A stretch of DNA of 64,000 nt, taken from NCBI GenBank assembly GCA_963785755.1, contig CAWAXG010000075.1, positions 676,837-740,836 on the forward strand, in the 5' to 3' direction. Every line of letters starts with the position of its first letter. Position 1 is the first letter of the stretch. The notes under the pieces are model-generated. The model was not told the origin of the DNA and made no database searches. It saw only the letters and a list, made by a program, of their open reading frames with translations. This DNA comes from an uncultured Acidobacteriota bacterium. Lineage in GTDB: Bacteria; Acidobacteriota; Vicinamibacteria; Vicinamibacterales; 2-12-FULL-66-21. Both the position numbers and the translations under genes were made by a program. This document shows positions 17,800-34,346 of this stretch, in pieces.

Positions 17800-18897
17800 T
17801 CAGAATCCACGAACGCGGACCCAGAAGCTCTCTTCCCAGGTGCCCCCCGGAGGCACGCTCTGGAGGTCTTTGTAGAGCCCCTTGTGGGCGAGGTTCATTG
17901 CATTCGTGATGCCGACCATCGGCTCGAAGCAGATGTAGTTCCGGTCGCCCGCCCCCTGCCCAGCTCCGGCGCCCGTTCCGGGCTTCGGCTTCGGAGCGTA
18001 AATCACCATCGCACGGTAATTTGGGCCCAAAACCACGTCGAGCTCCTGCGCCTTTCCTTTCAGCGTCATCACCGCCCGGCCGGACCCGTCGCGGGCCAGA
18101 TCGCCAAACACGTGATCCAGGTCGTAGTCCTTCAACGGAATGACTTTCGGATCCGGAAAGAAGGATTCGATCGGCTGGGTTTCCCCGGTCGGCAGGTGGT
18201 TCGCGTCGAGCAGCCAGTGGCTCTTCGCCCCCACCGAAATCGTCCAGTCGTCGCGCATCGAGTCGGTCAGCTGAAAGTACGGATGGAACCCGATCGCGAC
18301 CGGCATCGGGTCCGTGCTCAGGTTGTCGATTCGCGTCGTCACCTGCATCACGCCGTCCTTCAGCGTGTAGGTCATGTCAATCGTGTGGGCAAACGGGAAC
18401 TGTTTGATCCACAGCGGGATTGCGATAGAACTCGAGCCGGCTCGTCGTCCGGGCAGACGTCGCGTCCGCCTTCACGTCCACGACTTTCCACTGGTTGTTG
18501 AAGGTCAGCAGGCCGTGAATCGGGATCTTCCCCCTGACGTTCCCCAGGGTCATGTCGAACTCGTAGCGCTTGCCGTTGGCGTAGAACGCCTGCTCGTCGA
18601 GCCGGTTCGCCCACGGTGCGAGAAAGGGATTGCCGTTGAAGCCGGGGCGCGTCTTGAACTCCTCGATCGAGGCATACGGCCACCGGAGGACGTTGTGCCC
18701 TTTCACCTTCATCTCGAACGCGAGGTTGCCGACCGACGGCAGGATCGAGATCGTCGTCTGATACTTCGAGTCGTGCAGCTCGACGACGTCGCCGGTCTGC
18801 TTCGCGGTGTACTGTTGCGCAGCGGCCGGGGCGGCGACGATCGCGAATGCGGTCACGTCAGAACCACCACTGCGGCCCGCCGTCGTGTCTGCATCAT
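17800..18897 (-). pseudogene. Exported aldose 1-epimerase family protein; two compensating frameshifts as assembled
   Basis: ATG 18897 (MMQTRRRAAVVVL...) and the C-terminal part (17800..18375, ...GFHPYFQL...) share one frame. The middle 18377..18856 (...FLAPWANRLDEQAF...) is in another. The second junction is at a GGG/CCC run near 18413-18418 (RLEFYRNP | LWIKQFPFAHTIDMTYTL). Confidence 0.7.
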
Positions 18898-18947: not shown

Positions 18948-19754
18948 TCAGCGCGCGCCTCGACCGATCTCTTCGGCCGCCTCCTTCAGGATGGGCAGGA
19001 ACTCACGCTGCAACGTCCTGGTTTCGACGCGGCCTGCTTGAACCCCGACGTTGAGCGCCGCCACGACCGCGCCGTCGTGCCGATGGATCGGGACGGCGAT
19101 CGATCGCAGTCCCAGCTCGAGCTCCTGATCGACAATCGCGTGGCCCTGGGCCCGCACGCGATCGATCTCCGCACGGAGCTCTTTCCTGTCCACAATCGTC
19201 CGATCGGTCCGCCGGGTCAGCCTGACTTGCGAGAAGAAACGCACCAGCTGCTCGTTGCTGCCATACGCGAGGAGCACCCGGCCCGATGCCGTGCATGCGG
19301 CGGGCAGGCGGCTGCCGACCGCGATTTCGACCGACAGGATACGCCGGGTCGCGACCCGCGCTACGAAAACTATTTCATCGCGATCGAGCACGGCAACAGC
19401 GGTGGCTTCCTGCAAGCGTCCGGAAACCCGTTCGAGGACGGGCTGTGCTGTCATCGCGATGGATGAGGTCCCGAGATACGCCTGCCCGAGCGCAAGGACG
19501 GCTGGGGTCAGCTCGAAGCCGCCGTTGGCTGGCGCGGCATAGCCCAGGACGTGAAGAGTGTGCAGGCACCGGCGTGCAGACGCACGGGACAGGCCGGTCA
19601 CGGCAGCGACCTCAGCGCCCGAGAGCGGACTCCGCCCTTTCCCGAACGCTCTGATCACTGACAAGCCGCGGGCCAGCGATTCCATGTAGTACGGATCGCT
19701 CGGTCGCGTCTCGCCGGAGGCCGTAAGCGTCACCCCTGAAGCGGAGTCGGGCAT
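18948..19754 (-). CDS. IclR family transcriptional regulator (PcaR/PcaU-like by context)
   Basis: 268 aa from ATG 19754. N-terminal wHTH (SLARGLSVIRAF...VTGLSRASARRCLHTL) and a C-terminal IclR effector domain. Lies about 3 kb from the end of the pca operon. Confidence 0.8.
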   Translation of the reverse strand: MPDSASGVTLTASGETRPSDPYYMESLARGLSVIRAFGKGRSPLSGAEVAAVTGLSRASARRCLHTLHVLGYAAPANGGFELTPAVLALGQAYLGTSSIAMTAQPVLERVSGRLQEATAVAVLDRDEIVFVARVATRRILSVEIAVGSRLPAACTASGRVLLAYGSNEQLVRFFSQVRLTRRTDRTIVDRKELRAEIDRVRAQGHAIVDQELELGLRSIAVPIHRHDGAVVAALNVGVQAGRVETRTLQREFLPILKEAAEEIGRGAR

Positions 19755-20086
19755 CCGCTTCCGCACTTTCGTTCGCGCCGGCTCGAGCCTTCGTCGCGTC
19801 GCCAAGACACCGCATCCTCGGACCGGCGGGCGGACACTGTCAAGACGAATATCGAAGCGGGCGGGCGGTAATCGCCCGGCGAGCGGAAACCGCACAACGA
19901 ACGCGTCACCGCCCGCGCACTCACAATTGCGGTGTCCGGACTGACAAATCCGCCACGTTCCCTGCCGAACGCCTTTGTAAGTACCGGTCCCCGCAGCAGT
20001 TGCTGACGCCTCCGTCCGGCGCGGGATGTGCAGGCACTGCTGAGCCACCCAGCAAATCACGGCCGTCGTGCTCCCGAGGTAAACCC

Positions 20087-22601
20087 ATGTTCCCTCGCAC
20101 TCGCCGTCTGCTCGTGGTCATCGGCGTTCTGATCGGTCAGCCCGCGCTGCACGCCTGGTCCCCGTCACTGATGGGTGACCGCGTCGAGTGGGCTGCGGCC
20201 GGCGCGGCCCAGAGCTGCTCCTACAGTCTGTCCGCCACCAGTGCCTCAGTGTCTTCGACCGGAACCACCGCCGGCTCGCTGTCGGTCGTCACCGGCACCA
20301 ACTGTTCCTGGACCTCGGTCAGCCACGACGCGTGGATCACGGTGACAGGTGGCGCGAGCGGAACGGGAATCGGTCAAGTCGCGTACAGCGTCGCCGCGAA
20401 CACGACCGGCGGCCAGCGCGTCGGCACCATGACGATCGCCGGCATGACCTACACGGTGACCCAGAGCGCGACCGGCTGCACGGTCAACCTCTCCGCGACC
20501 AGCGCCTCGGTCCCCTCGACCGGCAGCACCGCGGGCGCGTTGTCCGTCGTCACGGGCACGAGCTGTTCATGGACGGCGGTCAGCAACGCCGCCTGGATCA
20601 CCGTCACGAACGGCGCCAGCGGAACGGGAATCGGTCAGGTCGCGTACACCGTTGCGGCGAACACGACCGGCAGCCAGCGCGTCGGCACCATGACCATCGC
20701 CGGGCAGACCTTCACGGTCACCCAGAGCGGAAGCAGTTGCACGTACAGCCTCTCGGCGACGAGCGCCGCCGTGCCTTCGACCGGCAGCTCCGCCGGCGCG
20801 TTGTCCATCGTCAGCGGCACCAGCTGTTCATGGACGGCGGTCAGCAACGCCGCCTGGATCACCGTCACGAACGGCGCGAGCGGATCCGGAATCGGTCAGG
20901 TCGCGTACACCGTCGCCGCGAACACGACCGGCAGTCAGCGCGTCGGCACCATGACCATCGCCGGGCAGACCTTCACGGTCACCCAGAGCGGAGCCAGTTG
21001 CACCTACAGCCTCTCGGCGACGAGCGCCGCCGTGCCTTCGACCGGCAGCACCGCCGGCGCGTTGTCCATCGTCAGCGGCACCAGCTGTTCATGGACGGCG
21101 GTCAGCAACGCCGCCTGGATCACGGTCACAACGGCGCGAGCGGATCCGGAATCGGTCAGGTCGCGTACACCGTGGCCGCGAACACGACGGGCAGTCAGCG
21201 CGTCGGCACCATGACGATCGCCGGGCAGACCTACACGGTCACCCAGGCCGCCGCCAGTTGCACCTACAGCCTCTCGGCAACGAGCGCCTCCGTGCCTTCG
21301 ACCGGCAGCACCGCCGGCGCGTTGTCCATCGTCACGGGCACGAGCTGTTATGGACGGCCGTCAGCAACGCCGCCTGGATCACGGTCACCAACGGCGCGAG
21401 CGGATCCGGAATCGGTCAGGTCGCGTACACCGTGGCCGCGAACACGACGGGCAGTCAGCGCGTCGGCACCATGACGATCGCCGGGCAGACCTACACGGTC
21501 ACCCAGGCCGCCGCCAGTTGCACCTACAGCCTCTCGGCAACGAGCGCCTCCGTGCCTTCGACCGGCAGCACCGCGGGATCGTTGTCCGTCGTCACGGGCA
21601 CGAGCTGTTCATGGACCGCCGTCAGCAACGCCGCCTGGATCACGGTCACCAACGGCGCGAGCGGATCCGGAATCGGTCAGGTCTCGTACACCGTCGCGGC
21701 GAACACGACCAGCAGCCAGCGAGTCGGGACCATGGCGGTCGCCGGAATTGGGTTCACCGTGACCCAGGCCGCCGCCAGCTGTTCGTACAGCCTCTCCGCA
21801 ACCAGCGCCTCCGTCCCGTCGACCGGCAGCACGGCCGGAGCGGCATCCGTCGTCACGGGCACGAGCTGTTTCTGGAACGCCTTCAGCAGCGCTGCGTGGA
21901 TCACGGTGACGAGCGGCGCGAGCGGAACGGGAATCGGTCAGGTCGCGTACAGCGTTGCGGCGAATACGACCGGCGGTCAGCGCATCGGCACGATGACGAT
22001 CGCGGGGATCACGTTCACCGTTACGCAGGCCGCCGCCAGCTGCACCTACAGCCTCTCGGCAACGAGCGCCTCCGTGCCCTCGACCGGCAGCACCGCGGGC
22101 GCGTTGTCCGTGGTCACGGGCACGAGCTGTTCATGGACAGCCGTCAGCAACGCCGGCTGGATCACGGTCACCAACGGCGCGAGCGGATCCGGAATCGGTC
22201 AGGTCGCGTACACCGTAGCGGCGAATACGACGAGCAGTCAGCGGGTCGGCACCATGACGATCGCCGGGCAGACCTTCACAGTCACCCAGAGTGGAAGCAG
22301 TTGCACGTATAGCCTCTCGGCGACGAGCGCCTCGGTGCCGTCGACCGGCAGCACCGCGGGCGCGCTGTCCGTCGTCACCGGCACGAGCTGTTCGTGGACC
22401 GCGGTCAGCAACGCCGCCTGGATCACGGTCACCAACGGCGCGAGCGGATCCGGAATCGGTCAGGTCGCGTACACCGTAGCGGCGAATACGACGAGCAGTC
22501 AGCGGGTCGGCACCATGACGATCGCCGGGCAGACCTTCACAGTCACCCAGGCCGGCTCGACAACACTCAGCGCGCCGACGGGCCTTCGCGTCGTCAAGTG
22601 A
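20087..22601 (+). pseudogene. Secreted protein of nine tandem BACON-like domains; two 1-nt deletions as assembled
   Basis: ATG 20087 gives signal MFPRTRRLLVVIGVLIGQPALHA. The repeat unit is ~87 aa: SC(T/S)YSLSATSA.VPSTGS.AG.LS.V.GTSCSWTAVSNAAWITVTNGASG.GIGQVAYTVAANTT.SQRVGTMTIAGQTFTVTQ. The frame changes at 21129 (caccaacgg read as cacaacgg) and 21349 (ctgttcatgg read as ctgttatgg), splitting it into ORFs 20000..21214, 20188..21474 and 21258..22601. Confidence 0.75.
20213..22550 (+). repeat. 9 x ~261-bp tandem coding repeat
   Basis: The period is visible directly (e.g. 20741 vs 21001). Runs of about 180 nt are identical between units (21131-21314 vs 21391-21574). Confidence 0.9.
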
Positions 22602-22644: not shown

Positions 22645-23530
22645 CTACGCCAAACCAAAAAGCTTCAGCGCGTTCTCTTTGAGAATCAGCGGCCGCACTT
22701 CGTCTTTGATCGCGATCTTCTCGAAGTCCGCCAGCCATCGATCCGGCGTGATCCACGGATAGTCCGAGCCGAACAGCACCTTGTGCCTGAGCAGTGAGTT
22801 GGCGTATTGCACGAGCGCCGGCGGAAAGTACTTGGGCGACCACCCGGACAGATCGATGTAGACGGTCGGCTTGTGCAGGCAGATCGAAATGGCTTCGTCC
22901 TGCCATGGGAACGACGGGTGCGCCATGATGATTGGCAGCTCGGGAAAATCGACAGCCACGTCATCGATGGGCATCGGGTTTCCGGTACTTGAGACGAATG
23001 CCGGCGCCGCCGGGTACACCGGTGCCGATCCCGCTGTGCCCGGTATGAAACAGAACCGGAAGCTTCGCCTCGGCGAACACCTCGTAGAGCGGGTAGGCGA
23101 TCGGGTCGTTCGGGAAGAACTGCTGGGCGGGCGGATGCAGTTTGAGGCCGTGGACGAGACCCGTCGCAATCAGCCGCTTCGCCTCCCGAACGGCCTCAGG
23201 GCCGCGTGTGGGATCGAGGCTGACGAACGCCAGGGCGATGTCCGCGTTGTCCGCGGCGAAGCGGAGAACCTCGTCGTTCGAGACCTGCCGGCGGCCGGAA
23301 AGCCGCTCGTCCACTGTGAACACTACAAACGCGATCCGGCGCGAACGGTAGTACTCCGCGAGGGCCGCCGGATTTCGCGGGGCGCCGCTGTCCCCGAAGG
23401 ACTTGCGCGCCGCGGCGTCGGCCACCGAGGCCTCCTCGACCTCGAGGTGCACGTGCACGTCGAATCCAGCCAGCTGCGTTTGATCAATCCCGGAACGTCG
23501 TTCCACGTGACTGTTGTCCTTCCCCGACAT
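22645..23530 (-). pseudogene. Amidohydrolase_2 family (ACMSD/LigW-type) metal-dependent hydrolase/decarboxylase; one frameshift as assembled
   Basis: The N-half (FDVHVHLE...VLFHTGHSG...GIRLKY) is in ORF 22961..23560 and the C-half (GNPMPIDDVAVDFPELPIIMAHP...LFGSDYPW) in ORF 22645..23169. The junction is at taccggaaaccc near 22980-22986. Start is ATG 23530 or GTG 23506, overlapping the upstream gene end. Confidence 0.7.
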
Positions 23531-25304
23531 CGATAACGGTTTCCGGCCGTGTGGTCGCATACAGGGCGTCGACCAGCGTCGCGCGATTCACCAGCACGGC
23601 ATTCTGGTTGACGGAGCCCTTTTCGGTGACTTCGTGCGCATCGATAGCGGGCGGCGCCTCGAGGATTACGGCGCGCCTGATCGACGTGGAGCTTCCGGGA
23701 AACATCGCCGCGAACGTCTCGAGCAGTTGCCGGATCTGCTCGTCGAATCGGACCGGCCCCAGCCCGCGACGCGTCTCGACGTTCGGGAAGATCAGCGCGG
23801 CCACGAACTCCCGATCGTGGCCCGCGATCACCACGTCGTGCACGACCGGGCCGCAATGCGCGAGGAACGCAATGCGAAGCGGCCCCACCCGTACCCACGT
23901 ACCGGTCGCCAGCTTGAAGTCCTCGGACAATCGCCCTTCGAAGGCGAATCCGCGGGAAGGGTCGTTCGCGTCGACGAAGCCGAGCGCATCGCCGAGCCGG
24001 TAGTATCCCTCCTCGTCGAATGCCGCGCGCGTCATTTCAGGATCCCGCCAGTATCCAGGGGTGATCGTGGGACCGCGCAGGCGCCCTTCGAGGTGCCGTC
24101 CCACCGGTGCCAGCTTGAGCTCCACGCCGGGGACCGGCACACCGATCCGGCCTCCCGTGAAATCCGCGTCGCCGGCACAGAGCGCAAAGGGTGCGCTCTC
24201 CGTTGCACCGAGGCCGGTCACGAGCGGAATCCTGCTCCCTCGTGCCTCGCGCGCCACGGCGTCGAGATCGTCCGCCACCTGCTGCCGCAGCGCCGCCGCA
24301 GCGCAGAAGAGCATCCGCAACCGGCTGAAGAACCGCGTGCGAAGCGCCGCATTCGAGCGAAGCCGCGGCACGAGCAGATCGTAGCCACGCGGCACGTTGA
24401 AGTACGCCGTGGCAGCGATGTCGCTGAGATTCGCCACGGTCGTCTCGAACCCCTCGGCCGTGGGCTTGCCATCGTCGATGTAAAGCGTTCCGCCGTTGTA
24501 CAGGACGATGCCGAAGTTGTGGTTGCCGCCGAAGGTGTGATTCCAGGGCAGCCAGTCGCACAGGACGGGCGGACTCTCGACGAGGATTGGCAGGACCGTC
24601 CGGATCATTTCCTGGTTCGCGCAGAGCATCCGCTGCGTGTTGATCACGCCCTTGGGCCTCCCGGTCGATCCCGACGTATAGAGGATCTTGGCGATCGTGT
24701 CTCCGCTGACACGGCGGTGCGCGTCGTCCACCGCGTCCGTGGGGTCAACCGACGTCAACTCGTCGAAGGACGTGGTGCCTGAGAGCGACCCGGAACAGGT
24801 CACGACTTCGACGCCGCGGCCATCCATGTTGGACAGCGCACGCTGGTAGCACTCGCCCTCCGCCGCGAACACAAGCCCGGGACGGAGCGCGGACCACACG
24901 GCTTTCAGCGTCGTGTACTCGCGGGCGATGAGCGAGTAGGCCGGCGCAACGGGGACGTACATCACTCCCGCATACATCGCGCCGAGCGCGAGCAGACCAT
25001 GCTCGATGCTGTTGCCTGACAGTATGACGACCGGACGGTCGGCGGAGAGCTTCCGGTCGATGAGCGACTGCGCGATTGCGCGGACACGCCTCAGCGTCTC
25101 CGCGTACGACACGCTGCGCCACGCTCCCTGGGCGTCGCGGCGCGCGAGAAACGCACGGTCAGGCTCCTCTGCTGCCCAGGATTCCAACCGCTCAGTGATC
25201 CTGCCGGGATACGCGCCGAGCGGATGCGGCGACCGCGCGTAGACAACACCGCCCGGGGCGCGGTCGATCAGCGTTACAGGTGACAGGATTCGGGATCGTT
25301 CCAT
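23484..25304 (-). CDS. AMP-dependent acyl-CoA synthetase, feruloyl-CoA-synthetase-like
   Basis: 606 aa. AMP-binding motif YTSGSTGRPKGV. Length and N-terminal region resemble the hydroxycinnamate/feruloyl-CoA ligase type. Substrate not established. Confidence 0.7.
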   Translation of the reverse strand: MERSRILSPVTLIDRAPGGVVYARSPHPLGAYPGRITERLESWAAEEPDRAFLARRDAQGAWRSVSYAETLRRVRAIAQSLIDRKLSADRPVVILSGNSIEHGLLALGAMYAGVMYVPVAPAYSLIAREYTTLKAVWSALRPGLVFAAEGECYQRALSNMDGRGVEVVTCSGSLSGTTSFDELTSVDPTDAVDDAHRRVSGDTIAKILYTSGSTGRPKGVINTQRMLCANQEMIRTVLPILVESPPVLCDWLPWNHTFGGNHNFGIVLYNGGTLYIDDGKPTAEGFETTVANLSDIAATAYFNVPRGYDLLVPRLRSNAALRTRFFSRLRMLFCAAAALRQQVADDLDAVAREARGSRIPLVTGLGATESAPFALCAGDADFTGGRIGVPVPGVELKLAPVGRHLEGRLRGPTITPGYWRDPEMTRAAFDEEGYYRLGDALGFVDANDPSRGFAFEGRLSEDFKLATGTWVRVGPLRIAFLAHCGPVVHDVVIAGHDREFVAALIFPNVETRRGLGPVRFDEQIRQLLETFAAMFPGSSTSIRRAVILEAPPAIDAHEVTEKGSVNQNAVLVNRATLVDALYATTRPETVIDVGEGQQSRGTTFRD

Positions 25305-25318
25305 CGAGATCTGATGCG

Positions 25319-25554
25319 CGTCGGTTCAAATGTTCAAGGGTTCAGGAGTTCAGAGGTTCGGGTTCAGGGATTCAACAGTTCGGGTTCAACAGTTCGAGCG
25401 TTCAAGGTTCAGCGATCTCGCCGCTGATCTCTCGAATCTTGGACATCTGAACCTGAACCCCTGAACCCCGAAGCCTTGAACCTGAACATCTGACCCCCCG
25501 AACCCTTGAACCCGAACCTCTGAACCCTTGAACTCTTGAACCATTGAACCGACG
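25319..25554. repeat. Family B simple-word palindrome, copy B2
   Basis: CGTCGGTTCA + ~12 GTTCR words (25319-25411), a 34-nt loop, ~13 TGAAC words, then TGAACCGACG (25446-25554). The outer ~45 nt of the arms are well complementary. Fills the gap between the FadB-like stop (25569) and the ligase start (25304). Confidence 0.9.
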
Positions 25555-25568
25555 AAAGCGGCGCGAGA

Positions 25569-27689
25569 TCACCGTCGCCGATCGTGATCCCTGAACGTCC
25601 CCCCGGCCGCGGCCAACCGCGACAAGAGCGGCGCGGGCGACCACCGTTCCCCGTGCTCGCGATGAAACGCGGCGACTCGTTCGTGGATCACCGGCAGGCC
25701 GACGAGGTCGGCGTGGAACATCGGACCGCCGCGCCACGCTGGAAAGCCATAGCCGTTGGCGTAGATGACGTCGATGTCCGATGCCCGGCCCGCGGACCCG
25801 TCCTCGACGATTCGCGCGCCTTCGTTGACCAGCGCATAGATGCAGCGTTCGACGATCTCCCGATCGGTGAACGTCCGCTGCGGAATGCCGGCCTCCCTCG
25901 CGGTTGCCTTGATCAAGTCGTTCACGATCGGGTCGGGTGAAGGCTTGCGGTTCTCATCGTAGCGATACCAGCCGCTGCCGCTCTTCTGCCCGACTCGGCC
26001 AAGCTCGTAGAGCTTGTCGGCAACCAGCGGCCTGCGGCCACTTCCGTCGCGAAAGTGACCGAGCTCCTGACGCACGCGCCACGCGACATCGATGCCGGCC
26101 ATGTCATCGACCGCGAAAATGCCCATCGCCATCCCGAAATCGGTGAGCGCCCGGTCCACCTGTTCGGGCGTCGCGCCCTCTTCGACCAGGAACTGCGCTT
26201 CGTACATGTAGGGGAACATCATGCGGTTGCCGACGAACCCGCGGCAGTTCGCCACCACCACCCCGACCTTCCCCAGCCGCCTGGCGAACGCGAGACCGGT
26301 CGCGAGCACGTCTGCCTGGGTTGCCTGCCCGCGCACGATCTCGAGCAGCCGCATCACGTGGGCGGGACTGAAAAAGTGGAGGCCGATGACCTGTCCGGGA
26401 CGCGAGGTCGCGCCCGCGATCGCGTCGATGTCGAGCGTCGAGGTGTTCGTCGCGAGCACGGCGGACGGCCTGGCCACGCCATCGAGCTCACGAAAAATCT
26501 GCTTCTTCAGCTCGAGGCTCTCGAAGACCGCTTCGACAATCAGATCGGCGGCGCTGAAGCCGTCGTAGGACAGCGATGGTTGGATGCGTGCGAGCCGGTC
26601 AGCGACGTCTTCCCGTGTCAGCCGGCCGCGGCTGATCGACGATTCGTAGTTGCGCTGAATCGTCCCGATACCCGCATCGAGGGCAGCCTGCGAGCCTTCC
26701 TTGATGGTGACCTGAAGCCCCGCGTTCGCGCACGCGATGGCGATGCCGCCTCCCATCGTGCCGGCGCCGACGACGGCCACCCGGGAGATCGGCCGCGGCG
26801 CGGCGTCCTTCGGAAGATCCCGCACTTTCGAGACGGCCCGCTCCGCGAAGAACAGATGAATCAGGGCCTTCGCCTGGTCCGTCTCGACGCACTCGAAGAA
26901 CAGCTCGCGTTCGCGGCGGCAGCCGTCGGCAAAGGACATCGTGGTTGCTGCGTCGATGGCGTCGATCGCCTTCAAGGGCGCTGTTTGACGACGGCGGACT
27001 TTCGCGGCGAGCTCGCGGGCGGCGGCAAACAACGGGGCATTCTCCGCTGGAGACCCGAGCCGGTCGGATTTCGCGCTGGTCCTCCGTCCGCTCGTGCCGC
27101 TGGCCGCGACCTCGCGGGCGAAGCTGATCGACTCGGCCACGAGATCGCCTTCGATCACCGCGTCGATGAGACCGGCCGCAACCGCGTCACGGCCTTTGAG
27201 CGGCCGGCCCGTCACGCACATGTCGAGGGCCTTCGCGACGCCGACCAGCCGCGGGAGCCGCTGTGTGCCTTCCGCGCCGGGAATGATCCCGAGGTTCACC
27301 TCGGGCTGGCCAATCAGCGCGTCGGCGACGGCGACGCGATAGTGCCCCGCCATCGCGAGCTCGAGCCCGCCGCCGAGCGCCGTGCCATGGATCGCCATGA
27401 CGATCGGCTTGCGGCAGTCCTCGATCCGGGCGAGGAGGTCGTGAAGGTCGGCGGCCGCAGCGCGATTGCCCCACGCCGCCGCCTCCAGGCTGGCGATATC
27501 GGCGCCCGCGACGAACGTCTTTCCCGCGCCCTTGAGCACGATCGCGCGAACCGACACGTCCTGCTCCGCTGCCGCGAGCGCCTCGACGATGGCGTCGGGC
27601 ACGCCGGGGCTGAGCGCATTGACCGGAGGATTGTCGATTTCGAGGAGCCGCACACCGTCGTGTGCACTGACCTGTACGAGGTTCGTCAT
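25569..27689 (-). CDS. Bifunctional enoyl-CoA hydratase / 3-hydroxyacyl-CoA dehydrogenase (FadB/FadJ-like)
   Basis: 706 aa from ATG 27689 (ATGA overlap with the upstream stop). N-terminal crotonase fold (NPPVNAL...GGGLELAMA) and a central NAD-binding VVGAGTMGGGIA. Confidence 0.85.
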   Translation of the reverse strand: MTNLVQVSAHDGVRLLEIDNPPVNALSPGVPDAIVEALAAAEQDVSVRAIVLKGAGKTFVAGADIASLEAAAWGNRAAAADLHDLLARIEDCRKPIVMAIHGTALGGGLELAMAGHYRVAVADALIGQPEVNLGIIPGAEGTQRLPRLVGVAKALDMCVTGRPLKGRDAVAAGLIDAVIEGDLVAESISFAREVAASGTSGRRTSAKSDRLGSPAENAPLFAAARELAAKVRRRQTAPLKAIDAIDAATTMSFADGCRRERELFFECVETDQAKALIHLFFAERAVSKVRDLPKDAAPRPISRVAVVGAGTMGGGIAIACANAGLQVTIKEGSQAALDAGIGTIQRNYESSISRGRLTREDVADRLARIQPSLSYDGFSAADLIVEAVFESLELKKQIFRELDGVARPSAVLATNTSTLDIDAIAGATSRPGQVIGLHFFSPAHVMRLLEIVRGQATQADVLATGLAFARRLGKVGVVVANCRGFVGNRMMFPYMYEAQFLVEEGATPEQVDRALTDFGMAMGIFAVDDMAGIDVAWRVRQELGHFRDGSGRRPLVADKLYELGRVGQKSGSGWYRYDENRKPSPDPIVNDLIKATAREAGIPQRTFTDREIVERCIYALVNEGARIVEDGSAGRASDIDVIYANGYGFPAWRGGPMFHADLVGLPVIHERVAAFHREHGERWSPAPLLSRLAAAGGTFRDHDRRR

Positions 27690-28843
27690 TCGCGTGTTCT
27701 GTCGAGCTCTTCCGCCGCGATGTGAAATGCGGTGTTCGCCGCCGGCACTCCGGCGTAGACCGCCAGCTGCAGCAGCACCTCTTGCAGGTCGCACTGTTCG
27801 AGCTCGTGCGTCAGGCCTGTCCGGACGTGCAGCCGGAATTCCTCCCAGCGCCCGAGCGCGGCGGTCGTCGTGAGCACGAGAAGACGGCGCGTTCGATGAT
27901 CGAGGCCCGGCCGCGCCCAGATCGTTCCCCAGGGAAACCGGGTGATCAGCTCCTGGAAGTCTCTGGTGAGGTCCGTCGCGGCGGCCGTGCTGGCGTCCAC
28001 GTGCGCGTCACCGAGTACGGCTCGCCGAACTGCCATGCCGGTCTCGATCGAGCCGTCAGCAGGCTTGATGAGGAAATCGAGCACCGTGGCAGCGAACGTT
28101 CGCGGCCGTTCGATGTTCGAGAGATGCGCCGTCTGCAGCCGCAGTGCTTTCGCCCCGGCAATCGACTCCATCAGCCGCTCGCTGTGCGGACTCCAGGGTG
28201 TGGACACGTCACGATCGCCGCCGATGACGAGCGTGGGAGCGCGGATGGATCGGATCGTTGCGGTCTGGTCCATATCGCGAATCGCGGCGCAGCAGCCGGC
28301 GTAGCCGATCGGATCGGTGGCCAGGAACGTGCGCCGGATCGAGCCCACAATCGGCGCCGTCGGCTGGAGCACCGCCGGCGAAAAGAACCGCCCCATCACC
28401 ATCTCGACGACGGCGGCCATGCCACCGTCGAGCACCGCGCGGCGGCGATTCTCCATGGCCGCCGGGTCGGTCAGCCGCGGCGACGTGTTCGCGAGGACCA
28501 GCTGCGTGATCCGATCCGGCGCGCGGACGGCCAGCCATTGACCGATCATGCCGCCGAGCGACAGGCCGCAGAACGCGAACGTCGCCGCGCCCGCCGCATC
28601 CGCGACGGCGAGTGCATCATTCGCCAGCTGTTCGATCGAGTAGTCTCCGGGCGTCGCAGACGAGGCGCCATGTCCGCGGGTGTCGAAGCGCAGGATGCGG
28701 AAATGCGGCAGCCAGTCGGCGATCTGCGGATCCCACATCCCATGATCGAGCCCGAGGGAATGCGACAACATCAACGCCGGACGGCCTTCCGCGCCATCGT
28801 CGCGGTAATACAGCCGCGCGCCGTTGGACTCGACGAACGCCAT
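27686..28843 (-). CDS. pcaL: Fused 3-oxoadipate enol-lactonase / 4-carboxymuconolactone decarboxylase
   Basis: 385 aa from ATG 28843. The alpha/beta-hydrolase part has nucleophile elbow GLSLGG. The C-terminal ~120 aa is a carboxymuconolactone decarboxylase (AhpD-like) domain. The start shares a base with the pcaB stop. Confidence 0.85.
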   Translation of the reverse strand: MAFVESNGARLYYRDDGAEGRPALMLSHSLGLDHGMWDPQIADWLPHFRILRFDTRGHGASSATPGDYSIEQLANDALAVADAAGAATFAFCGLSLGGMIGQWLAVRAPDRITQLVLANTSPRLTDPAAMENRRRAVLDGGMAAVVEMVMGRFFSPAVLQPTAPIVGSIRRTFLATDPIGYAGCCAAIRDMDQTATIRSIRAPTLVIGGDRDVSTPWSPHSERLMESIAGAKALRLQTAHLSNIERPRTFAATVLDFLIKPADGSIETGMAVRRAVLGDAHVDASTAAATDLTRDFQELITRFPWGTIWARPGLDHRTRRLLVLTTTAALGRWEEFRLHVRTGLTHELEQCDLQEVLLQLAVYAGVPAANTAFHIAAEELDRTRE

Positions 28844-30204
28844 CACGACCCCTCGCTGCCTGGAGCCGCGGATTCGGCGAGCAGTTGCCGGCGCAACGCC
28901 TCCGACTCTCCCAGATACTGCTCCGGCCGATCGACGCCTTCCAATGCCCTGGCTATCACCGCGTTCGTCAGCTCGGGCATCGCCCGCAGCACGTCGTGGA
29001 ACGAACGGTCCGACTCCTGGCTCCGCCGCACGGCCTCGGTGACGAGTCGCCGGGCGATGGCCGGCCCGACGTGAGGTCCGAGCGCGACGACCGCACGTTC
29101 CGCGAAGATGACCCCGGCCGTCGCGTCCAGATTCGCCTGCATCCTCGACGTGTTGACGCTCAGCCCCTCGAGGGCAGCCGCCACCGCGGCAGCCGCCGAT
29201 CCGGTGGTCTGCACGATCGACGCGATCGTTGGCCATTCCGCCTGGCTCCCGCCGACCGAACGCTCGTGCTCCTGCACCATCCCGGTGAGGAAGGCGGCCA
29301 CCAGACCCGGCATCCGCGTCGCCGCCGCGATCGCCACTGCCGAGCCCGCGGGGTTGCGCTTGTGCGGCATGCTCGAGGATCCCCCACCGCGTTCCGCAAC
29401 CTCACCGACCTCGGCCTGCATCAGCAGCGAAACGTCGCGCGCGATCTTGCCGAGCACCGCGGTGTACAACCCCATCGCCGCGATCGCCCCGCCCAGACGA
29501 TCCCGATCGGTGTGCCAGGGTGGCGCGGGACCAAGATCCAGCTCGGTCGCGAGCTCCATCGCGACAATGGCCGCGCGATCGCCGAACGCCGCCCTGGTCC
29601 CCGCCGCTCCCCCGAACTCGAGGACGAGCGCCGCGTGCCAGGCCGCCGACAGGCGCGACCACGATCGACTCAACGCCGCGCACCAGCCGGCGGCCTTCAG
29701 GCCAAAGGTGATCGGGGTGGCGGGCTGCAGGAGCGTGCGTCCCAGCATCACGGTCGAGGCATGCGCCTCCGAGAGCGTCCGCAGGGCGCGATCGATTCGG
29801 GCATGATCCGCCGCGAGCAGCGACTTCGCCCGCTTGAGGAGCAGTACCATCGCCGTGTCGGCGACATCCTGGCTGGTGGCCCCCCAGTGGACGTACTGCG
29901 CGCTCTCCGGATCGATTGCGCGGACTCGCTCGGTCAGCGCGCCCACGAGCGGAATCACCGGCGTGGCCGACTGGCGTGCCTCGCGGGCGATGGCGGCCAC
30001 GTCGAAGCGCTTCGCCTCGGCGGCCGCGGCGATGGCTTCCGCGACGGCCTCCGGAACGATGTCCGCGCGCGCGGCGGCGCGCGCCAGCGCCACCTCGAAA
30101 TCGAGCATGGCCTGCAGCACCGACTGGTTCGAGAAGACTTCGGCGAGCGAATCGGTCGTGGCGAGGCACTCGATCAGCCGCACGCTGCTCATGTTCTCGG
30201 CCAT
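28843..30204 (-). CDS. pcaB: 3-carboxy-cis,cis-muconate cycloisomerase
   Basis: 453 aa from ATG 30204. Fumarate-lyase superfamily signature GSSSMPHKRNP. Sits between pcaG and pcaL. Confidence 0.85.
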   Translation of the reverse strand: MAENMSSVRLIECLATTDSLAEVFSNQSVLQAMLDFEVALARAAARADIVPEAVAEAIAAAAEAKRFDVAAIAREARQSATPVIPLVGALTERVRAIDPESAQYVHWGATSQDVADTAMVLLLKRAKSLLAADHARIDRALRTLSEAHASTVMLGRTLLQPATPITFGLKAAGWCAALSRSWSRLSAAWHAALVLEFGGAAGTRAAFGDRAAIVAMELATELDLGPAPPWHTDRDRLGGAIAAMGLYTAVLGKIARDVSLLMQAEVGEVAERGGGSSSMPHKRNPAGSAVAIAAATRMPGLVAAFLTGMVQEHERSVGGSQAEWPTIASIVQTTGSAAAAVAAALEGLSVNTSRMQANLDATAGVIFAERAVVALGPHVGPAIARRLVTEAVRRSQESDRSFHDVLRAMPELTNAVIARALEGVDRPEQYLGESEALRRQLLAESAAPGSEGS

Positions 30205-30208
30205 CGCA

Positions 30209-30787
30209 TCAGAAATCGAAGAACACCGTTTCCCGATCTCCCTGGAGATGAATGGCGAAGTCCCATGTGTCCGGCGAGTCCCCGGCCGGCGACGCGAGTA
30301 GCGTCTCACGCCGGCTGGCCGGCACGAGCGCAAGGATCGGATCGGCGGCGAGCCCGGCGCCGCCGGCGAAATAGATGCGGGTGTAGACCTGACGCAGCAG
30401 GCCGCGCGCGAGCAGGCACACATTGATGTGCGCCGCCTGCGCCGGCCCGGCGCCGGCCGGCACCGGACCGGGATGGATCGTCTCGAAGACACACGCGCCG
30501 TTCCCGTCGGTCGGCAGCCGTCCGAAGCCGGTGAAAGTTTCGGCTGGTTCGCCGCTGGGCGATCGCTGCGGATACGCGCCCTGACGATCGGCGTGGTAGA
30601 TCTCGACCAGCGCATCGGGAACGGGCATCCCGTCACCGTCGAAAACTCGCACCCGCACCTTGATGCGCGCTCCAGCGTCGTTCGTGGCCGCGATGCGGCC
30701 GAGCGCGTCGTTGGTCGCCAGGCCGAAATGAAAGAACGGCCCGACCGTCTGCGACGGACTCGCGATCGGCCGGCTCTCGTCGGTCAT
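30209..30787 (-). CDS. pcaG: Protocatechuate 3,4-dioxygenase alpha subunit
   Basis: 192 aa from ATG 30787, with a 4-nt overlap with the pcaH stop. N-terminal PSQTVGPFFHFGL typical of PcaG. Confidence 0.85.
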   Translation of the reverse strand: MTDESRPIASPSQTVGPFFHFGLATNDALGRIAATNDAGARIKVRVRVFDGDGMPVPDALVEIYHADRQGAYPQRSPSGEPAETFTGFGRLPTDGNGACVFETIHPGPVPAGAGPAQAAHINVCLLARGLLRQVYTRIYFAGGAGLAADPILALVPASRRETLLASPAGDSPDTWDFAIHLQGDRETVFFDF

Positions 30788-31479
30788 GTGCGCTGCTCGA
30801 ACGGCGTCGAGTGGCGGCCGCGCAGCACGATGTCGAACCGGTAGCCGAGCGCCCACTCGGGTTCGGTGAGGCCCAGATCGAACTGCGAGATCAGCCGCTG
30901 GCGCGCCCGCTCGTCGGGAATCGACTGAAAGATCGGATCGTGCGGAAACAGCGGATCGTTGGGAAAGTACATCTGCGTGACCAGCCGCGACAGGAACGAC
31001 GTGCCGAACAGCGAGAAGTGAATGTGCGCGGGCCGCCACGCGTTCGGGTGATTGCGCCACGGATACGCACCCGGCTTGATGGTCACGAACCGGTAGCGCC
31101 CGTCGGCGTCGGTCATCGTCCGCCCCGCGCCGGTGAAATTCGGATCGAGCGGCGCCGGATGATCGTCCCGGGCATGAATGTACCGGCCGGCGGCATTGCA
31201 CTGCCAGAGCTCGATCAAGGTGTTCGGCACCGCGCGACCATCCTCGTCGATCACACGTCCGGCCACCACGATCCGCTCGCCTTGCGGCTCGCCGGCATGC
31301 TGGCGCGTGAGATCGTTGTCCACCTCTCCTATCGGCAGGTCGCCGAACAGCGGCGAGGCCAGATCCGTGAAGGTGCCGGGGATGCGGATCTGCGGCTGCT
31401 GCGGCGCGCGCCGGATGGTCGACTGGTACGGCGGATAGAAGAGCGACGGCTGGCTGTGCTGGCAATCCTGGCTGCTCAT
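30784..31479 (-). CDS. pcaH: Protocatechuate 3,4-dioxygenase beta subunit
   Basis: 231 aa. Intradiol dioxygenase core ELWQCNAAGRYIH...TIKPGAYPWRNHPNAWRPAHIHFSLFG. Confidence 0.9.
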   Translation of the reverse strand: MSSQDCQHSQPSLFYPPYQSTIRRAPQQPQIRIPGTFTDLASPLFGDLPIGEVDNDLTRQHAGEPQGERIVVAGRVIDEDGRAVPNTLIELWQCNAAGRYIHARDDHPAPLDPNFTGAGRTMTDADGRYRFVTIKPGAYPWRNHPNAWRPAHIHFSLFGTSFLSRLVTQMYFPNDPLFPHDPIFQSIPDERARQRLISQFDLGLTEPEWALGYRFDIVLRGRHSTPFEQRT

Positions 31480-31519: not shown

Positions 31520-32617
31520 TCAACCCCACACCTCCTTCGCGACCAGCCCGACGAGCTCGAGCTTCCGCCGCTGATCGTCCGGCGACACGCTGTTTCCCTC
31601 GTGCGTCGACGCGAAGCCGCACTGAGGGCTCAACGCCAGCCGTTCGAGGGGAACAATCTTCGAGGCCTCGGCAATGCGGGTCCGGATCTCCTCCTGGCTC
31701 TCGAGACGCGGCACCTTGGTGCTGATCAATCCGAGCACGACAATGCGGTCGTCCGGGACGTGGCGCAGAGGCTCGAACGTGCCCGACCGTTCATCGTCGT
31801 ACTCGAGCAGGAACCGATCGAACCTGGCGCGGGTGAAGATCCGCGCCGCGATCCGGTCGTAGCCGCCCGACGCGTAGAACATGCTCTTGTGATTGCCGCG
31901 GCAGATGTGGATGCCGAAGGTGATGCCGGGGTGGCCCTCGATGATCGCGTTGTCGAGCTCGATGCACGCGTCGAGCATACGATCCGGATCGTTGCCGCGC
32001 TGCCGGTAGCCCTCGCGGATGTTCTCGTCGAGCAGCGCCGCGTACTGCGGCGCGTCGATCTGGACGTATTCGCAGCCGAGGCGGCCGAGCTCCGCGATCT
32101 CGCGACGGGTGAAATCGACGAGGTCCGCGAGATACGCGTCGCGCGTGGCGTAGGCACTGCGCGACCGGTCGGGATCGTAGTAGGCGGCGGCCTGCTGCGC
32201 GCTGATCAGCGTCACCTTCACGGGCCGGCGGGTCCGGCCGCGCAGGTAGGTGAACTCCTCGACGGCCATCTGCCGGCGCCATCGGAGCCTGTCCACGACC
32301 ACCGGCCGTTTCAACGCGGCCTGATGGCCGTCGTTGTCCCGGAACGTAATCGACCACCCCGCGTATTTGTCGAAGCCTTCGAGCGCCTCGACGAGGTGAC
32401 CGTAGAACGCGTAGCGCCGCAGCTCGCCGTCGGTGATCACATCGAGGCCGGCGGATTCCTGCAGCGCGACCGCCTCGTCTATTGCGCGATCCTCAATCGC
32501 CTTGAACGCGGCCGCGCCCAGTTCGCCGCGCTCGAGCTGGTCGCGCGCGGCGAGAAGGCTGGCCGGCCGAAGCAGGCTGCCGACGACGTCGGCTCTCCTG
32601 GAATGCTGCATCACCAT
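31520..32617 (-). CDS. MetE-like (cobalamin-independent methionine synthase C-terminal domain family) Zn methyltransferase homologue
   Basis: About 365 aa from ATG 32617 (the ORF opens at 32638, inside element B3). Candidate Zn ligands are retained: H-x-C in FGIHICRGN, Glu in LLEYDDE, Cys in LSPQCGFAS. Confidence 0.7.
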   Translation of the reverse strand: MVMQHSRRADVVGSLLRPASLLAARDQLERGELGAAAFKAIEDRAIDEAVALQESAGLDVITDGELRRYAFYGHLVEALEGFDKYAGWSITFRDNDGHQAALKRPVVVDRLRWRRQMAVEEFTYLRGRTRRPVKVTLISAQQAAAYYDPDRSRSAYATRDAYLADLVDFTRREIAELGRLGCEYVQIDAPQYAALLDENIREGYRQRGNDPDRMLDACIELDNAIIEGHPGITFGIHICRGNHKSMFYASGGYDRIAARIFTRARFDRFLLEYDDERSGTFEPLRHVPDDRIVVLGLISTKVPRLESQEEIRTRIAEASKIVPLERLALSPQCGFASTHEGNSVSPDDQRRKLELVGLVAKEVWG

Positions 32618-32627
32618 ACGCGATCTT

Positions 32628-32797
32628 CGTCGGTTCAAAGGTTCAGGAGTTCAAGCGGTTCGGGTTCAGGGGTTCAGCGGTTCAAGGGTTCGACAGGGTT
32701 CAGAGGTTCAACCTCCCGCGCGAACTCTCGAACGACTGAACCTGAACCTCTGAACCCGAACCCGTGAACGCCTGAACTGCTGAACGCTTGAACCGAC
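32628..32797. repeat. Family B simple-word palindrome, copy B3
   Basis: CGTCGGTTCA + ~10 GTTCR words, loop cctcccgcgcgaactctcgaacgac, then TGAAC words ending TGAACCGAC. Fills the gap between the pcaF stop (32802) and the MetE-like start. Confidence 0.9.
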
Positions 32798-32801
32798 TCC
32801 A

Positions 32802-34013
32802 TCAGACCTTTTCAATCACCATCGCAATTCCCTGTCCCACGCCTATGCACATCGTGCACAGCGCATAGCGGCCGCCGAGGCGCCGGAGCTGATACATCGC
32901 CGTCGTGACCAGCCGCGCGCCGCTGGCGCCGAGGGGGTGGCCGATCGCAATCGCTCCGCCGAGCGGGTTCACATGCGGGGCATCGTCTGGAACGCCCAGT
33001 TCCCGGAGGACGGCGAGCGCCTGCGCCGCGAACGCCTCGTTCAACTCGATGACATCCATCTGATCGATCCGCAGGCCGGCGCGATCGAGCAGCTTTCGCG
33101 ACGCCGGCACCGGTCCGATCCCCATGACACGGGGAGCGACTCCCGCGACCGCCGCCGCGACGTATCGCGCCCGGGGGCGAAGGCTGTATTCCGTCACCGC
33201 CTTTTCCGAAGCAAGCAGCAGCGCGCAGGCACCGTCATTGATGCCCGACGCGTTGCCGGCGGTCACCGAGCCGTCGGGCCGGACGACGGGCTTGAGCTTC
33301 GAGAGCGCCTCGCGGGTCGTGTCGGGACGCGGGTGCTCATCGGTCTCGACGTTGACGGCCCCCTTGCGCTGATGGACGCTGACCGGAACGATTTCATCGG
33401 CGAGCCGGCCGTCGGCGATCGCCGCCGCCGCGCGCTGCTGGCTGCGAAACGCGAACGCGTCCTGATCCTCGCGGGACACGCCGTACGCCGCGGCGACGTT
33501 CTCCGCCGTTTCGGCCATCGAGTCGATGCCGTACGCCTCCTGCATCCGGGGATTGACGAACCGCCAGCCGAGCGTGCTGTCTTCGAACTTGATCGAACGG
33601 GAGAACGGCGCGTCGGTCTTGCTCATGACGAACGGCGCCCGCGACATGCTCTCGACACCGCCGGCGACAACCAGATCCATTTCACCCGTGGCAATCGCCC
33701 GGGCGGCGATCGCGACTGCCTCCAGGCTGGACCCGCAGAGCCGGTTGACCGTCACGCCGGGCACATCCTCGGGAAGCCCCGCGAGCAGCAACGCCATCCG
33801 CGCGACGTTCCGGTTGTCCTCGCCAGCCTGATTGGCGCAGCCATAGATCACGTCATCGATCCGGTGCCAGTCGACCCGGGAGTTGCGATGACGGAGCGCC
33901 TGAATGGGCACCGCGGCGAGATCATCGGTGCGAACGCCGGCGAGTGCCCCGCCATACCGTCCGAACGGGGTCCGCACCGCATCGCAGATATACACTGCAT
34001 TCGAGTCGGGCAT
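32802..34013 (-). CDS. pcaF: 3-oxoadipyl-CoA thiolase / acetyl-CoA C-acyltransferase
   Basis: 403 aa. N-terminus [29 protein letters not shown] and [22 protein letters not shown] are typical of PcaF/PaaJ thiolases. Active-site NRLCGSS and C-terminal CIGVGQG. Confidence 0.85.
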
Positions 34014-34030
34014 TGTCTCCTCATGGATCT

Positions 34031-34296
34031 CGTCGGTTCAGTAGTTCAAGGGTTCAAGGGTTCACGGGTTCGGGTTCAGAGGTTCAAAGGTTCGATTCAG
34101 CGTTCAAAGGTTCAAAGGTTCGATGCGGTTGCTCGAGCGACCGCGCGCCAGCGAGCGCGGCTGAGTTCCAGTTGAACATTTGAACCACGGACGCCGAACC
34201 TGAACTCTTGAACCTTGGAACTCTTGAACTCTTGAACCTTGAACCTTGAACCCTTGAACCCTTGAACCCTTGAACCCCTGAACCTTTGAACCGACG
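34031..34296. repeat. Family B simple-word palindrome, copy B4 (largest)
   Basis: CGTCGGTTCA + ~11 GTTCR words (to ~34125), a 45-nt GC loop with its own small stem (ccgcgc...gcgcgg), then ~14 TGAAC words ending TGAACCGACG. Occupies most of the divergent region between pcaF (start 34013) and the cytochrome c gene (start 34347). Confidence 0.9.
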
Positions 34297-34346
34297 ACAA
34301 TCCAGCATCGTACAACCGCCCCGATTGTCTGTATCATCGAGTTGAA

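Follow-up and report, generated by a model that had tools for sequence, protein, structure and literature searches.

The window analyzed here, a stretch of 64,000 nucleotides from contig CAWAXG010000075.1 of an uncultured Acidobacteriota bacterium (order Vicinamibacterales), contains an operon for protocatechuate catabolism that includes a gene for a MetE-like single-barrel Zn enzyme. The operon genes are located on the minus strand in the order pcaF, MetE-like gene, pcaH, pcaG, pcaB, pcaDC, fadB-like gene, and the genes of an acyl-CoA ligase and a CouO-like amidohydrolase (Table 1). The MetE-like gene is separated from the downstream pcaH by exactly 40 nt. The pcaH/pcaG and pcaDC/fadB-like junctions have ATGA start/stop overlaps, and pcaB and pcaDC overlap by 1 nt; these overlaps, within positions 27686–31479, suggest translational coupling. 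Because of the 40-nt spacer and the overlapping start and stop codons, co-transcription of the operon genes is almost certain. Scans for promoters and terminators within the operon yielded nothing informative. Pfam annotation of the approximately 50 predicted genes of the window revealed no Rieske (VanA), GCV_T (LigM), P450, corrinoid-protein, or DUF1852 gene.

The MetE-like gene is a real, conserved gene. With the ATG at position 32617 as the start of the enclosing open reading frame (ORF; 31520–32638, minus strand), it encodes a protein of 365 aa, which fits the lengths of the orthologs (361–366 aa). The GC content of its third codon positions (GC3), 0.88, is similar to that of the adjacent genes, and more than 120 protein clusters with at least 79% identity to the protein are present in public data. 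The single Pfam match is Meth_synt_2 (PF01717; 90 bits, E = 2.4e-25). The top NCBIfam model, PRK06520, aligns over the full length (residues 4–364 of the protein with positions 5–368 of 368 in the model), the score of 278 bits being below the cutoff of 313, and PRK06233 scores 237 bits at a cutoff of 576. The nearest solved structure is 1YPX, an uncharacterized protein of Listeria (E = 1.8e-60). An AlphaFold model with a mean predicted local distance difference test (pLDDT) of 74.8 and a predicted template modeling (TM) score of 0.80 confirmed the fold, and Foldseek ranked 1YPX first, C-terminal barrels of MetE next (TM-score about 0.7), and then MtaA and UROD.

Two assignments to known groups were rejected. 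Membership in canonical MetE is contradicted by the length (365 aa vs. about 750 aa for the two-barrel enzyme), by scores below cutoff (58 bits vs. 930 for TIGR01371; 60 vs. 541 for PRK05222), and by loss of the N-terminal folate barrel. Membership in the corrinoid-dependent core MetE group is contradicted by the single-barrel "methionine synthase" models, all matched below cutoff (PRK04326, 119 bits vs. 406; PRK09121, 59.5 vs. 392; PRK00957, 46 vs. 258; PRK01207, 37 vs. 399), and no corrinoid or MesX partner gene was seen in the window or among the annotated recurrent neighbors. The subfamily forms a tight clade with at least 67% identity and falls in one 50%-identity representative cluster, the next relatives having at most 51% identity; among longer homologs, no additional Pfam domain was detected. 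It is best regarded as a distinct uncharacterized subfamily of MetE-like Zn alkyltransferases with recurrent membership in protocatechuate/ferulate catabolic operons.

Active-site residues were compared between 78 subfamily members and approximately 100 more distant family members. The Zn-ligand motifs H237-I-C239, LLE272YDDE, and SPQC333GF are all present; H237, C239, E272, and C333 are invariant in the 78 members and at least 90% conserved in the distant relatives, and C333 is aligned with the Zn ligand Cys704 of Thermotoga maritima MetE. In the latter enzyme, homocysteine is contacted by Ser411, Glu462, and Asp577 (PMC539065), and the aligned residues S14, E65, and D188 are invariant in the subfamily. 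The pterin site of T. maritima MetE comprises Glu583, stacking on Trp539, and residues of the N-terminal barrel, the N-terminal folate contacts being Lys104, Arg15, and Lys18 (PMC539065). The MetE-like protein lacks this barrel and hence these three contacts. Opposite Glu583 it has Ala194, a tentative correspondence obtained by gapless extension, as the local alignment ends at residue 192, and the DMV motif of MetE is replaced by A-F-Y. Trp88, aligned with the pterin-stacking Trp539, is kept and is subfamily-specific.

The comparison revealed about 28 positions whose invariance is restricted to the subfamily, with Tyr, Trp, His, Arg, and Gln strongly represented; among them are Y69, H74, W88, R104, Q141, Q142, Y146, Y147, D148, Y162, Q191, Y204, Y248, and R291. 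Judging by their place in the primary sequence, these residues appear to be close to the active-site motifs. Since the Zn and homocysteine residues are invariant, the folate-binding parts are lost, and these residues are private to the subfamily, the thiol half-site is conserved and the donor half-site appears to have been rebuilt as a polar, aromatic pocket.

These data agree with most of a preceding sequence-only reading of the window, in which the gene had been placed between pcaF and pcaHG, 40 nt upstream of pcaH (as the coordinates and NCBIfam matches confirm), and described as encoding an approximately 365-aa protein of the MetE C-terminal-domain family (confirmed by the matches to PF01717, PRK06520, and 1YPX) with the Zn ligands HIC, LLEYDDE, and SPQCGF, no demethylase of the VanAB or LigM type being found in the window. 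The same reading had suggested a "thiol- or folate-linked" methyl transfer. The thiol option is strengthened by the fully conserved homocysteine site, whereas the folate option becomes less likely, given the missing N-terminal barrel and the Ala tentatively aligned with Glu583.

Table 1. Features of the operon and its surroundings in the window
Feature	Coordinates	Strand	Evidence
MetE-like single-barrel Zn enzyme, 365 aa	31520..32617	-	PF01717, PRK06520, 1YPX, Foldseek, residue conservation
pcaF, 3-oxoadipyl-CoA thiolase, first operon gene	32802..34013	-	TIGR02430, 707 bits (cutoff 597)
pcaH, protocatechuate 3,4-dioxygenase beta subunit	30784..31479	-	TIGR02422, 357 bits (cutoff 296)
pcaG, protocatechuate 3,4-dioxygenase alpha subunit	30209..30787	-	TIGR02423, 202 bits
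pcaB, 3-carboxy-cis,cis-muconate cycloisomerase	28843..30204	-	PRK09053, 470 bits; TIGR02426, 353.5 bits
pcaDC fusion, 3-oxoadipate enol-lactonase + 4-carboxymuconolactone decarboxylase	27686..28843	-	NF051488, 425 bits (cutoff 390)
fadB-like, enoyl-CoA hydratase + 3-hydroxyacyl-CoA dehydrogenase	25569..27689	-	ECH_1, 3HCDH_N, 3HCDH domains
AMP-forming acyl-CoA ligase, PRK12582 type	23484..25304	-	AMP-binding domains
Amidohydro_2 protein, read as CouO-like	~22645..23530	-	PF04909; tblastn pieces; CouO precedent
IclR-family regulator, PcaR-like	18948..19832	-	HTH_IclR, IclR_C domains
Palindromic element of 8-nt repeats, (GGTTCANN)n then (NNTGAACC)n	32629..32797		Fills the intergenic gap between pcaF and the MetE-like gene

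Gene neighborhoods of the orthologs

A scan of one genome per species yielded 482 relatives of the MetE-like protein, and the best 80 loci have 67–82% identity. They come from Acidobacteriota (mostly Vicinamibacterales), Rokubacteria/Methylomirabilota, Chloroflexota (Ktedonobacteria, Thermomicrobia, and Chloroflexia), Dormibacterota, and one Terriglobales genome; Thermogemmatispora tikiterensis T81 and T. carboxidivorans PM5 are among the carriers (L042, L048). All survey data are from metagenome-assembled genomes of a few soil phyla. GC3-based gene calling overlooked some genes; hence neighbors were counted by tblastn with defined queries over 82 loci, a partner being required within 10 kb. 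Using this approach, at least one of pcaHG, pcaB, pobA, and an extradiol dioxygenase gene was found at 35 loci. No aromatic marker at all was found at 34 loci, many of the unlinked loci being short contigs. The most frequent single partner is pcaH (20/82), closely followed by pcaB (18/82), pobA (17/82), and the gene of a PcaK-type aromatic-acid/H+ transporter (15/82); type-I extradiol dioxygenase, pcaIJ, and IclR genes were observed at nine loci each. The immediate neighbor of the MetE-like gene is often pcaH or pobA.

The linked loci show at least 10 distinct gene orders across Acidobacteriota, Chloroflexota, and Dormibacterota. With respect to pcaHG, the MetE-like gene is located between pcaF and pcaHG in the window and in locus L092, precedes pcaHG directly (L025, L030) or with pobA in between (L045, L076), follows pcaHG (L070), or is divergent from pcaH (L009, L013, L017, L055). 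Elsewhere it follows pobA (L044, L073, L074, L078), is flanked by pcaB and pcaD on one side and pobA on the other (L057), stands between genes for an amidohydrolase and a major facilitator superfamily (MFS) transporter (L010), or is divergent from an IclR gene beside pcaF, pobA, pcaIJ, and pcaHGB (L015, L016, L018). A neighbor-joining tree of the proteins tracks taxonomy, and the linkage is present in all major clades except Rokubacteria/Methylomirabilota. By a rough estimate, the chance of co-location of a single-copy partner within 20 kb in a genome of several Mb is less than 1%. Linkage to pcaHG, which the sequence-only reading had proposed to look for in a survey of the subfamily, recurs, together with linkage to pobA and related genes, in many orders and in several phyla (35 of the 82 loci).

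Two unrelated ring-cleavage routes are accompanied by the MetE-like gene, namely, PcaHG-type ortho cleavage and extradiol meta cleavage, the latter often with pobA. The meta set consists of genes for an extradiol dioxygenase, a CMD-family decarboxylase-like protein, a hydratase, an acetaldehyde dehydrogenase, and an aldolase. In L028 and L068, the MetE-like gene is the last gene of catechol-type meta-cleavage operons, and in L073, L074, and L078 it occurs with pobA, an extradiol dioxygenase gene, and a CMD-family gene. In Chloroflexota (L073, L074, L078, L028, L042), the extradiol enzyme matches TIGR03211, "catechol 2,3-dioxygenase", and its gene occurs together with pobA and a small CMD-family gene, a combination that looks like a Pra-type route, with 2,3-cleavage of protocatechuate instead of catechol. 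The common element of the contexts is protocatechuate or 4-hydroxybenzoate and their uptake, not the downstream chemistry. Since the gene occurs with operons for ortho as well as for meta cleavage, the enzyme probably catalyzes a step before ring cleavage, comparable in its place in the pathway to funnel enzymes such as PobA. Pairing with PcaK-like aromatic-acid transporter genes, as two-gene units or within operons (L002, L089), agrees with this placement.

The methoxy group of ferulate must be removed before ring cleavage, and several loci carry candidate genes for the preceding steps. In L089, a co-directional array encodes a TonB-dependent receptor, an MFS transporter, two PF00756/CBM48 esterases, the MetE-like protein, a PcaK-like MFS transporter, a FadB-like protein, an AMP-ligase, and an Amidohydro_2 protein; in L091, the order is esterase, MetE-like gene, pcaH, pcaG, pcaB, CMD-family gene, FadB-like gene, and Amidohydro_2 gene. 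The esterase is similar over its full length to the solved ferulic acid esterases 8BBP and 6RZN (E = 2e-68), and its homologs flank the MetE-like gene in L002, L003, L006, L089, L090, and L091 (Vicinamibacterales context). The FadB-like module adjoins the MetE-like gene also in L005, L006, L010, L014, L021, L075, L089, and L091. For the acyl-CoA ligase, a structure search found no close solved structure; the score of its L006 ortholog against PRK12582 is 723 bits.

In Rhodococcus jostii, hydroxycinnamates are shortened via coenzyme A (CoA) ligation and β-oxidation, and the last side-chain step is catalyzed by the amidohydrolase-superfamily protein CouO, which releases the aromatic acid (PMC4737184). 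By analogy, the trio of ligase, FadB-like, and Amidohydro_2 proteins would fit a Cou-type scheme of side-chain degradation, with the ligase as a putative hydroxycinnamate-CoA ligase and the FadB-like protein presumably shortening the side chains of hydroxycinnamoyl-CoA. p-Coumarate would give 4-hydroxybenzoate, hence the frequent presence of pobA nearby. Demethylation is then the sole step of ferulate utilization without another candidate gene, and the MetE-like gene is the sole unassigned enzyme gene in these operons.

Proposed reaction and competing explanations

The MetE-like enzyme may be an aryl methyl ether:homocysteine methyltransferase that converts vanillate to protocatechuate, an assignment that we consider possible, if short of probable. 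A broader proposal, which we put forward only tentatively and with some doubt, is that it represents a fourth mechanistic class of aryl O-demethylases in aerobic organisms, i.e., a Zn-dependent enzyme that uses no O2, folate, or cobalamin and transfers the methyl group of vanillate-type substrates to homocysteine, giving protocatechuate and methionine. We infer the methyl donor, the acceptor, and the occurrence of any methyl transfer.

In the proposed scheme, the module of esterase, CoA ligase, FadB-like, and CouO-like proteins would convert ferulate to vanillate. Zn bound by His237, Cys239, and Cys333 (and by Glu272 in the resting state) would activate the thiol of L-homocysteine, which Ser14, Glu65, and Asp188 would bind in the manner of MetE. 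The Zn-bound thiolate would attack the methyl carbon of the methoxylated aromatic acid, with the phenolate as the leaving group; the phenolate should leave more readily than N5 of tetrahydrofolate, which is displaced by MetE. In synthetic chemistry, the use of thiolates to cleave aryl methyl ethers is standard. Vanillate is the best candidate substrate, and 4-methoxybenzoate is possible where pobA adjoins, so that the products would be protocatechuate (or 4-hydroxybenzoate) and methionine. Protocatechuate would then be cleaved by the adjacent PcaHG or, in Chloroflexota, by the extradiol dioxygenase. The window and the annotated recurrent neighbor clusters yielded no Rieske, GCV_T, P450, or corrinoid gene, and a regular expression for the Rieske motif matched none of the predicted ORFs of the loci.

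Several observations weigh against O-demethylation. In Rokubacteria/Methylomirabilota (17 loci), the protein is conserved beside ATP-binding cassette (ABC) transporters, with no aromatic genes. The neighbors in this group, observed at L024, L026, L031, L035, L040, L046, L047, L059, L063, L065, L067, L071, and L077, include genes of NMT1/SsuA-type and LivK-type ABC transporters and of an acyl-CoA dehydrogenase, with no ring-cleavage genes; here the substrate of the enzyme may arrive through the ABC transporters. Relatives at about 50% identity or below are found in unrelated contexts: those at 36–51% (Rhodococcus opacus, Rubrobacter, Klebsiella, L083, and L084, from plasmid records and metagenome contigs) show no consistent or aromatic context, and those at 36–50% adjoin, e.g., urea-type ABC transporter genes and folE/folP. 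Hence, the linkage cannot be extended to the whole family. In L084, a metagenome contig (51% identity), two Meth_synt_2 paralogs enclose genes for a Hydantoinase_B protein and a SnoaL-like protein.

The demethylation scheme is also weakened on metabolic and structural grounds. Catabolic flux would yield one methionine per vanillate, and a search of all loci for adenosylhomocysteinase found none, no methionine-cycle gene being linked. Known demethylases could be encoded elsewhere in the carrier genomes. In the structural model, pLDDT is below 50 at residues 65–105, i.e., in the active-site and substrate loops. Finally, neither a characterized member of the subfamily nor a MetE-type O-demethylase was found in a literature search; Price et al. 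2021 (PMC7857596) makes no mention of YxjG, YxjH, or 1YPX. The only lead, a weak one, is a transcript of the white-rot fungus Trametes versicolor annotated as "UROD/MetE-like superfamily", which changes at least 2-fold on lignin-modified poplar (PMC11883944).

Conservation of all Zn and homocysteine residues would also be expected of a genuine core methionine synthase that is co-expressed with aromatic catabolism but obtains its methyl group from a non-aromatic donor, for example from a methylated carrier or from a pterin or folate monoglutamate. Such an enzyme could possibly recycle methyl-tetrahydrofolate from a LigM-type demethylase encoded elsewhere or replace the oxidation-sensitive MetE under catechol stress. 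The alignment of Trp88 with the pterin-stacking Trp539, the annotation of all nearest named families as methionine synthases, the very high conservation across phyla, and the Rokubacteria/Methylomirabilota orthologs with their non-aromatic context are in line with this explanation. Nevertheless, we regard it as quite unlikely, since the protein reaches the cutoff of none of the NCBIfam methionine-synthase models, the folate barrel is absent and Ala occupies, tentatively, the position of Glu583, and no corrinoid, DUF1852, or GCV_T gene is present in the window or among the annotated recurrent neighbors. Moreover, a housekeeping enzyme is not expected to rejoin pobA, pcaHG, and aromatic transporter genes in at least 10 orders.

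The genomic context fits equally well a peripheral enzyme of aromatic-acid catabolism that yields 4-hydroxybenzoate or protocatechuate by a reaction other than O-demethylation, e.g., Zn-thiolate addition like that of epoxyalkane:coenzyme M (CoM) transferase, cleavage of another ester, ether, or thioether, or UROD-like decarboxylation. The MetE/UROD superfamily does include non-methyl reactions, UROD and MtaA are structural neighbors of the protein, and its substrate pocket is subfamily-specific. On the other hand, the retained site for an amino-acid thiol favors homocysteine-type alkyl transfer over decarboxylation or CoM chemistry, and in the ferulate context demethylation is the one step that lacks a candidate gene, which makes a different reaction somewhat unlikely. 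That the gene has no functional tie to its neighbors, the linkage reflecting hitch-hiking on mobile catabolic islands or the shared ancestry of the sampled genomes, seems very improbable. The 34 of 82 loci without an aromatic marker, the restriction of the data to metagenome-assembled genomes of few soil phyla, and the lineage-specific repeats that flank genes of the window operon would be compatible with it. However, short contigs make up many of the unlinked loci, and co-transcription is indicated by the short spacers between same-strand genes and by the overlapping codons. Moreover, the linkage survives many rearrangements, is present in clades that track taxonomy, and involves two unrelated ring-cleavage systems.

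Guaiacyl and syringyl lignin monomers must be O-demethylated on their way to substrates of ring cleavage, and this step is often rate-limiting. The known systems have their costs: VanAB requires O2 and NADH, with release of formaldehyde, LigM depends on the recycling of tetrahydrofolate, P450 demethylases need redox partners, and the anaerobic systems need corrinoid proteins and activators. If the proposed O-demethylation is correct, the MetE-like subfamily would constitute a mechanistically new class of O-demethylases, and lignin valorization would gain a new tool in the form of a single-subunit Zn enzyme with a thiol as the methyl acceptor. Such an enzyme would also couple the breakdown of lignin monomers to the assimilation of methyl groups in Acidobacteriota and Chloroflexota that are abundant in soil, help to explain the processing of ferulate and vanillate in uncultured Vicinamibacterales, Ktedonobacteria, and Dormibacterota, and provide the first donor specificity for the large "methionine synthase II" family. 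Even if the demethylase assignment is wrong, the linkage marks an unrecognized component of protocatechuate catabolism.

Other genes, repeats, and flanks of the operon

The IclR-family regulator of the window is 53% identical to the product of an IclR gene adjoining pcaIJ in L001. The window itself lacks pcaIJ (3-oxoadipate CoA-transferase) and pobA, both of which adjoin the MetE-like gene at many orthologous loci; one possibility is that the co-operonic acyl-CoA ligase activates 3-oxoadipate in this organism.

Three palindromic elements were found at positions 25323–25550, 32629–32797, and 34030–34297, all in intergenic gaps of the aromatic operon, with a weak partial copy at approximately 10233. 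Each consists of (GGTTCANN)n arrays followed by the inverse (NNTGAACC)n, with the termini TCGTCGGTTCA / TGAACCGACGA; the repeat pattern has 24 matches, with none expected. As RNA, the copy at 32618–32801 forms a hairpin of approximately 170 nt (−98 kcal/mol, z = −8.1). No such elements were found in the 88 other loci searched. They could be REP- or MITE-like, or could serve as elements of mRNA processing or stability.

The Amidohydro_2 gene contains one frameshift near 22976–23049, being recovered as two overlapping tblastn pieces in different frames, and an aldose 1-epimerase gene is likewise interrupted, its parts forming two ORFs (17800–18375 and 18377–18856, minus strand). In the near-identical contig L092, other genes are split (those of the ligase and the FadB-like protein) and pcaG is missing. 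The frameshift and the split genes look like indels of long-read assembly, not true pseudogenes. The operon is flanked by genes for a TonB-dependent-receptor-like outer-membrane barrel and two BACON-domain proteins (13533–17117, minus strand; 20000–22601, plus strand), and similar receptor genes are found in L089, L009, and L013. These genes may point to the import of plant-cell-wall fragments that bear feruloyl esters.

Comparison with known systems

The C-terminal barrel of MetE (EC 2.1.1.14) shares with the MetE-like protein the (βα)8 fold (TM-score about 0.7), the Zn site of His-x-Cys, Glu, and Cys, the Ser/Glu/Asp contacts to homocysteine, and the Trp at the position of Trp539. In contrast to MetE, the protein is half the size, has no N-terminal barrel, is only about 20% identical, and is encoded in catabolic operons instead of methionine-biosynthesis contexts. 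The closest known group is the methionine synthase II family of approximately 370-aa proteins (PRK06520, PRK06233, 1YPX, and YxjG/YxjH of Bacillus subtilis), with which it shares a full-length alignment, size, and invariant residues; it differs in scoring below both model cutoffs and in the approximately 28 private invariants. We know of no member of that family with a demonstrated methyl donor.

Core methionine synthases, i.e., the core-MetE of Dehalococcoides and MesA–D, are likewise single-barrel relatives of MetE without the folate domain; their donors are other than methyl-tetrahydrofolate, and they use corrinoid proteins or MesX (PMC7005905, PMC7857596). Unlike for these enzymes, no corrinoid or MesX (DUF1852) gene is present in the window or among the annotated recurrent neighbors of the MetE-like gene. 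Epoxyalkane:CoM transferase was set apart by gene context and retained residues rather than by direct sequence comparison: the window has no alkene monooxygenase or CoM biosynthesis genes, and the amino-acid-binding Ser/Glu/Asp residues are kept.

With respect to chemistry, a parallel is offered by the glutathione-dependent β-etherases LigE and LigF, in which a thiolate attacks an alkyl carbon of an alkyl aryl ether in an SN2 reaction and the phenolate leaves. These enzymes differ in their glutathione S-transferase fold, in the use of the glutathione thiol, and in attacking the Cβ of lignin instead of a methyl group.

The known aryl O-demethylases, namely, the Rieske-type VanAB, the tetrahydrofolate-dependent LigM/DesA with the GcvT fold, the P450 systems GcoAB and CYP199A4, and the anaerobic three-component corrinoid systems, have no relation in sequence or fold to the MetE-like protein, and any demethylase role of the latter would be analogous, not homologous, to theirs. 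In many bacteria, vanAB adjoins pca and pobA genes, and the position of the MetE-like gene is similar. The proposed role is shared as well, i.e., the conversion of vanillate-type methoxy-aromatics to catechols for ring cleavage, whereas the proposed mechanism would differ in dispensing with O2, NAD(P)H, tetrahydrofolate, and cobalamin, the methyl group ending on a thiol.

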